DNA of 21,433 nt. It comes from a virus. Numbering within the stretch: position 1 is the first letter of the stretch; every line of letters starts with the position of its first letter. Where the stretch lies: the UHGV virus genome UHGV-0131019. One strand, written 5' to 3'. Made by a program: the position numbers and the translations under genes. The notes beneath the pieces were generated by a model that was given only the letters and a program-made list of their open reading frames with translations, made no database searches and was not told the origin of the DNA. This document shows positions 1 to 523 of the stretch, in pieces.

Positions 1-200
1 CTGCCTGGTTTATCCCGAAGGATGAGAAGCAGGTGCCGACAGGCGCTTTCTTCGCTGGTGCTATTGCTGTTTTCGACAAGACCTGGAAGGGACCGGCAAT
101 CAGCTACATCGGGCGCTATGAACTTGAGGCATGTGGTGAGGCCTTTCTGGCGCAGGTTCGCCAGCAGGCAGAAAAACTGGTCAGGGAGATGGCGGCATGA
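1..200 (+). CDS. 3' end of an upstream phage nin-region ORF (partial; start lies outside the window)
   Basis: Frame starting at nt 3 is open to TGA at 198-200 (…GAIAVFDKTWKGPAISYIGRYELEACGEAFLAQVRQQAEKLVREMAA*). Its stop overlaps the next start as ATGA, typical phage operon coupling. Not identified further. Confidence 0.4.
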   Translation, partial: AWFIPKDEKQVPTGAFFAGAIAVFDKTWKGPAISYIGRYELEACGEAFLAQVRQQAEKLVREMAA

Positions 201-523
201 CGACGTTAACTCAATGCCAGCAGCAGGTGCTGGATATGCTGATTTCTTATCAGAAAGAACGTGGCTTCCCGCCAACCAATCAGGAGGTGGCAACCATGCT
301 GGGATACCGTTCAGTGAATGCAGCGGTGGAGCATCTTCGCGCACTGGAGAAAAAAGGCGTCATCACGATAAAGCGTGGCGTGGCCCGGGGCATCACGCTT
401 CATACCGCGGTGAAGGACGACGACAGCGAGGCGGTCGGGATTATCCGCTCACTGCTTGCCGGTGAGGAAAACGCAAGGCTGCGTGCAACCCACTGGTTAC
501 ATGAGAGGGGCCTGAAAGTATGA
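197..523 (+). CDS. LexA-like N-terminal DNA-binding-domain protein (winged HTH) lacking the S24 peptidase domain
   Basis: 108-aa ORF. Residues ~5-70 (QQQVLDMLISYQKERGFPPTNQEVATMLGYRSVNAAVEHLRALEKKGVITIKRGVARGI) follow the LexA N-terminal DNA-binding-domain pattern (PPT..E.A..LG.RS.NAA.EHL.AL..KGVI…RGI). No Ser/Lys autocleavage domain follows. ATGA overlap at both ends. Confidence 0.7.
   Translation: MTTLTQCQQQVLDMLISYQKERGFPPTNQEVATMLGYRSVNAAVEHLRALEKKGVITIKRGVARGITLHTAVKDDDSEAVGIIRSLLAGEENARLRATHWLHERGLKV

Follow-up and report, generated by a model that had tools for sequence, protein, structure and literature searches.

We analysed a stretch of 21,433 nucleotides (nt) from the virus genome UHGV-0131019 (in the following called the window) and focused on the gene at positions 197–523. 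Its product of 108 amino acids combines a LexA-type DNA-binding head with a short C-terminal helical hairpin and has no protease domain. The initial annotation, based on the sequence and its open reading frames (ORFs), had described a phage-encoded LexA DNA-binding domain that could occupy SOS boxes or phage operators without being cleavable by RecA*. The gene, the segments of its product, the neighboring genes and one further site of interest are:

197–523, + strand: LexA-head-only gene, 108 amino acids, ATG start (from the ORF list)
197–400, + strand: LexA-type winged helix-turn-helix, residues 1–68 (PF01726, AlphaFold2, Foldseek)
311–352, + strand: S39 and recognition helix, residues 39–52, SVNAAVEHLRALEK (pairwise alignment with LexA)
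401–418, + strand: low-confidence acidic linker, residues 69–74 (HTAVKDDD) (AlphaFold2)
419–505, + strand: amphipathic two-helix hairpin, residues 75–103 (helices 75–88 and 93–103) (AlphaFold2, alignment)
1–200, + strand: 3′ end of an upstream Dam-type N6-adenine methyltransferase gene (ORF 33–200; label taken from homologous annotated phages)
520–909, + strand: rusA, Holliday-junction resolvase (PF05866, E=6.1e-15)
926–1726: KilA-N protein (Pfam/PHROG-type family scans)
1728–2723: DUF968/HNH protein (same scans)
2726–3103: Q antiterminator (same scans)
5208–5227, no strand assigned: canonical SOS box TACTGTAAAAATAAACAGTG (exact CTGT-N8-ACAG, matrix score)

The gene lies in the overlapping chain that had been described. 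Its ATG overlaps the stop codon of the Dam-type ORF in the tetranucleotide ATGA at 197–200, and its own stop codon overlaps the start codon of rusA in another ATGA at 520–523. The proposed location in the nin region of a lambdoid phage is supported as well. We looked for a promoter belonging to the gene upstream of it within the window and found none. Compared with a Salmonella homolog, the ratio of nonsynonymous to synonymous substitution rates (dN/dS) is 0.13 for the whole gene, 0.03 for the head and 0.22 for the tail; this is a real gene under purifying selection.

The assignment of the head to LexA is supported by sequence and structure. The Pfam profile PF01726 (LexA_DNA_bind) covers residues 1–65 with all of its 65 positions (E=2.9e-19, 69 bits against a cutoff of 23.7), as expected from the initial annotation. 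The alignment to LexA suggested there gave 39 identities in 90 positions with the Escherichia coli protein (43%, BLASTP, E=8e-22), a similarity far beyond chance, and a phmmer search of the PDB sequences found the LexA DNA-binding domain 1lea (E=6.9e-16). The AlphaFold2 model, built from an alignment of 17 sequences, has a mean predicted local distance difference test score (pLDDT) of 84 and reaches about 88–89 in the head, with helices at residues 6–22, 28–35 and 40–52 and wing strands at 56–58 and 66–68. Foldseek superimposed this head on DNA-bound LexA (3jso) with a root-mean-square deviation (rmsd) of 0.9 Å over 68 columns at 50% identity.

The remainder of LexA is missing. A Pfam scan of the 108-amino-acid protein gave no match to Peptidase_S24, and only 40 residues follow the wing before rusA begins, in agreement with the earlier statement that the protein ends ahead of any S24 domain. 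The NCBIfam equivalog of full-length lexA, TIGR00498, is matched at model positions 1–91 of 203 only, with 70.8 bits, below its cutoff of 110.95. A88-G89 aligns with the LexA cleavage site; homologs have LLANEEN, LLVGEEN, MVERES or MIDDQP there, hence this position is not conserved. The protein is therefore not LexA proper, with neither the Ser-Lys S24 domain nor a conserved Ala84-Gly85 site and with a TIGR00498 score below the cutoff. We also considered the motif LLAGEE as a relic of the cleavage site (compare VAA/GEP in LexA), possibly cleaved in trans, and rejected this idea because the Ala-Gly pair is not conserved. Lacking both an S24 domain and a maintained cleavage site, the protein should therefore not be inactivated by RecA*.

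E. coli LexA contacts bases through S39, N41, A42, E44 and E45 (PMC13416735, citing Knegtel 1995). In the alignment four of these five residues (S39, N41, A42 and E45) are present in the phage protein, and so is R64-G65 of the wing. Across the family alignment S39 is invariant, N41 nearly so, and E45 is usually present. Base-reading residues so strongly conserved suggest that binding is sequence-specific. The E. coli subfamily probably reads a CTGT-like half-site; sameness with the specificity of LexA is not to be assumed.

Behind the head, residues 71–75 have a pLDDT below 50 and the linker differs in length between homologs. The hairpin that follows, absent from the initial annotation, is modeled with a pLDDT of about 90 and is conserved: the pattern E-A-V-x-x-I-R-x-L-L ... 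A-R-x-R-A-x-x-W-L persists in the homologs of other prophages down to ~40% identity. A search of the PDB with a profile of the tail found no sequence relative. Because LexA needs its C-terminal domain to dimerize, we infer that the hairpin is a dimerization module pairing two copies of the protein. Two observations fit such pairing without proving it: other LexA-head proteins in the databases that lack S24 carry two heads in tandem, and the whole model aligns loosely with winged-helix repressors of the BlaI/MecI/MarR type, which pair via C-terminal helices.

Following the suggestion to look for LexA-box-like operators in the prophage, we found a single exact CTGT-N8-ACAG in the window, the site at 5208–5227. 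With 22.0 bits on our SOS-box matrix it falls among the scores of genuine boxes (all 20 training boxes score at least 13.2 bits on their own matrix), and shuffled windows yielded 0.01 sites of at least 20 bits per window. The box overlaps codons 3–10 of an ORF for an N6_N4 methyltransferase (5200–6252), just upstream of the holin/lysis genes. Its core, CTGT-N8-(A/C)CAG, is kept in ~85% identical copies (phiNP, Kp4866-6, L013 and L020) despite changes in the encoded residues, suggesting that the methyltransferase or the late region is controlled by LexA. As an operator, the site is a candidate target of host LexA and perhaps of the phage protein as well.

To place this box in a wider frame, 80 IMG/VR loci around a gene copy of at least 99% identity (1.26 Mb) were compared with 80 control loci around lambda-type NinB (1.23 Mb), none of which has a LexA-head homolog. 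A profile scan with the closer alignment (A1) gave near-identical loci only. Boxes of at least 18 bits numbered 57 in the carriers, spread over 42 loci, against 3 in the controls, a ~19-fold difference, and the methyltransferase box occurred in 25 of the 80 carrier loci compared with 1 of the 80 controls. Lambda, HK97 and P22 were scanned as well and contain no box of at least 18 bits. The sole sites found in these control phages are weak LexA-like ones in the cII-O/oop region (lambda, L021 38660–38679, 15.4 bits; HK97, L022 29694–29713, 13.4 bits), with the sequence TACTGGATC.ATC.ACAGGA. When CTGT/ACAG pairs in both arrangements (inverted and everted) were scanned at spacings of 0–16 across the window and three partly homologous carrier genomes, N8 alone was clearly enriched (11 observed, 2.0 expected, z=6.6). 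Other operator geometries (inverted N13–N15, everted N14) showed weaker excesses, which we discarded since they came from sites shared by related genomes or located in coding regions. The LexA boxes reported for prophage endolysins of extraintestinal pathogenic E. coli (PMC9621596) are different, weak sites and were set aside.

Several of the carriers and more distant relatives have boxes at recurrent positions:

cI-internal near-perfect SOS box, 25–27 bits (one version is TACTGTTTTTATATACAGTA): L010 29167–29186; L009 31970–31989; L005 836–855; L013 2739–2758
SOS box in an insert between rusA and the KilA-N gene, TACTGTATTTATGAACAGTG: L042 12114; L074 10765; L077 7880; L078 10628; L095 10765
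SOS box upstream of the LexA-head operon: L018 513–532; L019 4907–4942; L020 9561–9580; L006 5560–5579

The cdtI genome has two boxes at the dinI promoter in addition to the methyltransferase box; mEp460 shares these three and has a 25.5-bit box inside cI, and SfII likewise has a cI-internal box, of 26.7 bits. The cI box sits in the linker codons between the helix-turn-helix and S24 domains of the cI-type repressor. Its CTGT and ACAG are constant, but the spacer between them differs, as do the residues encoded there (NTVYKNS, NTVCKNS, STVFINS). One possible role of this box is that of a LexA operator within the gene, acting as a roadblock or serving an internal or antisense promoter; we found no description of it. 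The second type occurs in 5 of the 80 carrier loci, where an insert of ~200 bp directly after rusA brings the box in front of the KilA-N gene. In the window, rusA and the KilA-N gene are 16 bp apart, with no box between them.

The third type belongs to N-terminally extended relatives, which have a box of 20.8–26.9 bits just upstream of the transcription unit that includes the LexA-head gene. In two of these four loci (L018 and L020) a sigma-70-like promoter, read by eye, lies beside the box, and in L020 the box comes after a terminator-like hairpin. The boxed unit starts with dinI in L018 and with a RecA_C-like ORF of 95 amino acids in L019. It continues through the LexA-head gene, RusA (missing in L018) and DUF968 to Q, an arrangement that would place Q, and hence the late genes, under direct SOS control.

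The genomic setting is conserved well beyond the near-identical copies. Homologs of 38–66% identity (P0086, P0124, P0126, P0130, P0138, P0162, P0219 and P0242) are found in early-right operons of lambdoid prophages, with the order LexA head, RusA, DUF968 and Q in the operons of all eight. A DNA methyltransferase often precedes the gene in these relatives; PF05869 (Dam) was found upstream of it in L004, L005 and L013. KilA-N, Ant or a small ORF is interposed in several relatives. RusA follows directly, or after one ORF of 66–67 amino acids, in 10 of the 11 lineages whose context could be read (L001, L004–L006, L011, L013, L016, L017, L019 and L020), and L018 (P0168) has a LexA-head gene without RusA. 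The start-stop overlap with rusA is usual and DUF968 comes next.

At an identity of at least 95%, the gene is present in 2233 of 5426 complete E. coli genomes (~41%), in which the Prokaryotic Genome Annotation Pipeline calls it “LexA family transcriptional regulator”. A near-identical gene was found in 63 phage records, among them cdtI, mEp460, the Shigella serotype-converting phages SfII, SfIV and SfV, and converting phages for the Shiga toxins Stx2a, Stx2c and Stx2k. It matches phrog_362, “transcriptional repressor”, along its entire length (E=1.1e-59, residues 1–108 to positions 1–106 of 106). Depositors have used names such as “LexA DNA binding domain protein” and, wrongly, “SOS-response repressor and protease LexA” or “RecA-mediated autopeptidases”; NCBI gave one database cluster the name ‘Rrf2 family’. 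Annotations of the gene are already widespread and often incorrect; the gene belongs to a known kind, the phage LexA heads without protease. Head plus hairpin in the lambdoid nin region of phages rich in SOS boxes is best classed as a variant of these. Among the database variants of the gene (P0022, P0092, P0098, P0024, P0034 and P0111) there are Dam-LexA-head fusions, and the copies P0024, P0034 and P0111 are internally frameshifted; both probably reflect sequencing or assembly errors or occasional pseudogenes. We found no functional study of this family in the literature, only mentions in genome surveys. One survey of Shiga toxin phages lists a “LexA family” pham with pfam01726 (pham 237) in 15 phages, not studied there (PMC8136144), which is probably this gene family. 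A role as a defense system was dismissed, the sole PADLOC match being a weak one to a winged helix-turn-helix.

What might such a protein do? Occupation of SOS boxes, as the initial annotation had suggested, is plausible, with circumstantial support from the contact residues, the enrichment of boxes in carriers and the operons shared with DinI or RecA_C-like genes. We tentatively propose, giving it slightly less than an even chance, that head and hairpin together form a protein that binds SOS-type operators, is insensitive to RecA* and provides LexA-like repression after LexA has been cleaved. Transcription of the gene would come from the early-right (nin) operon, with its translation coupled to that of dam and rusA, and its product would be made during lytic development, following induction or infection. 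The hairpin would pair two heads in place of the S24 domain of LexA, and the dimer would bind CTGT palindromes that are the same as SOS boxes or close to them, so that LexA-like repression could return once host LexA is cleaved. Candidate targets are the boxes of the phages themselves (5208–5227 in the window; in relatives those inside cI, upstream of KilA-N and at dinI), and host SOS promoters are possible targets as well. In the sub-lineage with an SOS box before its own operon, the protein would be a RecA-independent negative-feedback element.

The architecture itself would suffice mechanistically, as follows from the known behavior of LexA heads. The isolated N-terminal domain of LexA binds operators weakly but cooperatively, and heterologous dimerization domains restore repression. 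In bacterial one- and two-hybrid repression assays, engineered LexA(1–87) fused to a heterologous dimerization domain suffices to repress SOS-box promoters. These fusions resemble the phage protein in joining a LexA head to an unrelated small helical pairing module, provided that the hairpin has the pairing role we assign to it. They differ in being artificial and in using the exact LexA head, to which the phage head is 43% identical. If the protein is an uncleavable LexA mimic, it would be the natural counterpart of fusions that have been used for decades.

Several findings weigh against this proposal. The phage protein has valine at two positions of the DNA-reading region where LexA has E44 and P40, and position 44 is never Glu across the family (V, T, F, A, L or Y). 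Some relatives have strongly different recognition helices (NTIAGH, NAVLLH, NTVFIH), compared with NAAEEH in all bona fide LexA fragments from the same search; with such variability, a single operator cannot serve the entire family. The box in the window lies inside an ORF, and the 20-bp matrix used for scoring was compiled by hand from 20 E. coli boxes, a weakness of the scoring. In L004, L011/L012 and L016, which carry the gene, no SOS box reaches 13 bits within 12–20 kb. The enrichment in carriers rests on few elements (the boxes at the methyltransferase, in cI and at KilA-N), and the prophages are related mosaics; shared ancestry could therefore yield the association. Moreover, host LexA alone accounts for the existence of the boxes. 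A correlation across lineages between a LexA-like head and phage SOS boxes looked promising after six lineages and then broke down: the altered heads P0168, P0219 and P0242 have strong boxes right upstream, and the LexA-like P0130 has none in 20 kb.

The question is then which other function would fit a conserved, base-reading LexA head in this operon. A phage-specific repressor or activator that drifted away from LexA specificity toward an operator of its own appears somewhat unlikely, yet it has a precedent in gp6 of the Bacillus phage GIL01. This truncated LexA homolog binds its own palindrome (the GaCACAnnTGTGaC site) over the −35 element of the late promoter P3 and activates it (PMC6182141). 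It is the sole characterized precedent for a protease-less phage LexA head that we found, and it activates from an operator of its own instead of mimicking LexA at SOS boxes. Like the protein studied here, gp6 is a LexA DNA-binding domain without protease that is made early by a temperate phage, and the GIL01 switch is wired to host LexA. At 66 amino acids, however, gp6 has no C-terminal hairpin and is not detectably related beyond the fold, BLASTP returning no local alignment between the two proteins at E≤100. This lack of similarity indicates independent captures of host LexA heads, in the case of gp6 from a Gram-positive LexA. Drift toward a private operator would agree with the loss of E44 throughout the family, the differing recognition helices and the carriers without nearby SOS boxes. 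On the other hand, the E. coli subfamily holds four of the five LexA contacts, and its head evolves at the very low dN/dS given above. No other spacing or arrangement of CTGT/ACAG was convincing in the carrier genomes scanned, and no candidate was found for a gp6-type activation site, a palindrome over the −35 element of a late promoter. The gene also has no intergenic region of its own for an autoregulatory site, and the late genes already have the Q antiterminator. If the protein nevertheless had its own operator, it would represent the second independent capture of a LexA head by a phage, after gp6.

Its constant company raises another option, namely that the protein is not a transcription factor at all and acts as a DNA-binding accessory of a RusA/DUF968-HNH recombination-repair module, for instance by targeting or modulating junctions. 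The adjacency to RusA and DUF968 in 10 of 11 readable lineages speaks for it; nin gene order is generally conserved by module, though, which makes adjacency weak evidence. HK97 has RusA without this gene, L018 has the gene without RusA, and the conserved base-reading residues suggest binding to specific sequences, which together render this role improbable. Still less probable is a modulator of LexA that competes for SOS half-sites or forms mixed contacts with LexA and thereby alters, possibly raises, SOS expression or the thresholds of lysogen induction. The LexA fold with most contact residues and the shared operon with the RecA* modulator DinI in one relative would suit such a function. Expression in a repressed prophage is doubtful with no promoter of its own upstream in the window, and the conserved hairpin suggests self-association rather than monomeric competition. 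That the gene is a decaying, functionless remnant of a captured lexA is effectively excluded by selection and conservation. Its truncated look and the frameshifted database copies might give this impression, but dN/dS is low, length and tail are kept across genera down to ~40% identity, and thousands of genomes, as well as isolated phages that are viable, carry an intact copy.

Set beside E. coli LexA (3JSO, 1LEA), the phage protein thus has a homologous winged helix-turn-helix with shared contact residues and wing. It differs by the substitutions at positions 40 and 44, by a hairpin that replaces the C-terminal protease and dimerization domain, and by the placement of its gene in an early-right operon without an SOS-box promoter of its own in this lineage. 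Proteins of the BlaI/MecI type (Rv1846c, 2g9w; MecI, 1sd7) likewise join a winged helix at the N-terminus to a helical region at the C-terminus, and Foldseek aligned them over about 104–112 columns. They belong to another winged-helix subfamily, the rmsd is about 9–10 Å at low identity, and their C-terminal domain is longer and a target of signal-dependent proteolysis. Proteins with tandem LexA_DNA_bind domains (P0132, P0133, P0149, P0152, P0155, P0156 and P0163) also reuse the LexA head without S24. In contrast to head plus hairpin, they have two heads per chain (141–352 amino acids) and would be single-chain ‘pseudo-dimers’ of the LexA head. One of them is fused to a PTPS domain.

The SOS response governs prophage induction, Shiga toxin release, mutagenesis and antibiotic tolerance in E. 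coli, and the carriers of the gene include the Cdt-I phage and the Stx2-converting and serotype-converting phages named above. With an uncleavable LexA mimic on board, induced lysogens and co-resident prophages would behave differently after DNA damage. An extended version of this idea, which we consider unlikely, makes the protein an SOS ‘reset’ factor: a RecA-proof substitute for LexA that dimerizes via the hairpin and re-occupies SOS boxes genome-wide after induction. It would then shut down host SOS functions together with SOS-inducible rival prophages, colicins and toxins; the timing of the LexA-boxed genes of the phage itself (methyltransferase/lysis region, KilA-N, dinI and the cI-internal operator) would also depend on it. 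Like the DinI and RecA_C-like genes found in the same operon in relatives, it would belong to a wider set of phage tools for manipulating SOS, and ~40% of E. coli strains would hold a hidden second SOS repressor.

Elsewhere in the window, the non-coding region 4550–5199 upstream of the methyltransferase gene is conserved like coding DNA in the diverged phiNP and Kp4866-6, with a mean column identity of 92% over 203 aligned columns in the interval 5100–5300. It contains stem-loops, with terminator-like hairpins at 4706–4718 and 4758–4779, and an ORF of 67 amino acids (4846–5049) without family match; the late promoter and the qut region may be located here. Between Q and the late genes lies a low-GC island (3147–4546, − strand), with a GC content of 0.34–0.36 compared with about 0.5–0.56 in the flanking phage genes. 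It encodes a DUF6731 protein of 309 amino acids and an ORF of 149 amino acids without family match that appears hydrophobic by eye. A PADLOC scan of this island gave no matches, and its place is taken by other genes in SfII and cdtI; the island is probably a moron or defense cargo. A second low-GC island (8406–10165, + strand, GC content 0.37–0.46), is a two-gene operon between the lysis and terminase genes. PADLOC matched it weakly to PD-T4-10 A and B (1e-5 and 2.8e-4), and it also has a DUF6575 domain; these features make it a candidate for anti-phage defense cargo. At 10338–10367, in front of a DUF1441 (terminase-small-like) gene, there is a perfect inverted repeat with arms of 12 bp, ACCACTGTAATA-GATTGA-TATTACAGTGGT.

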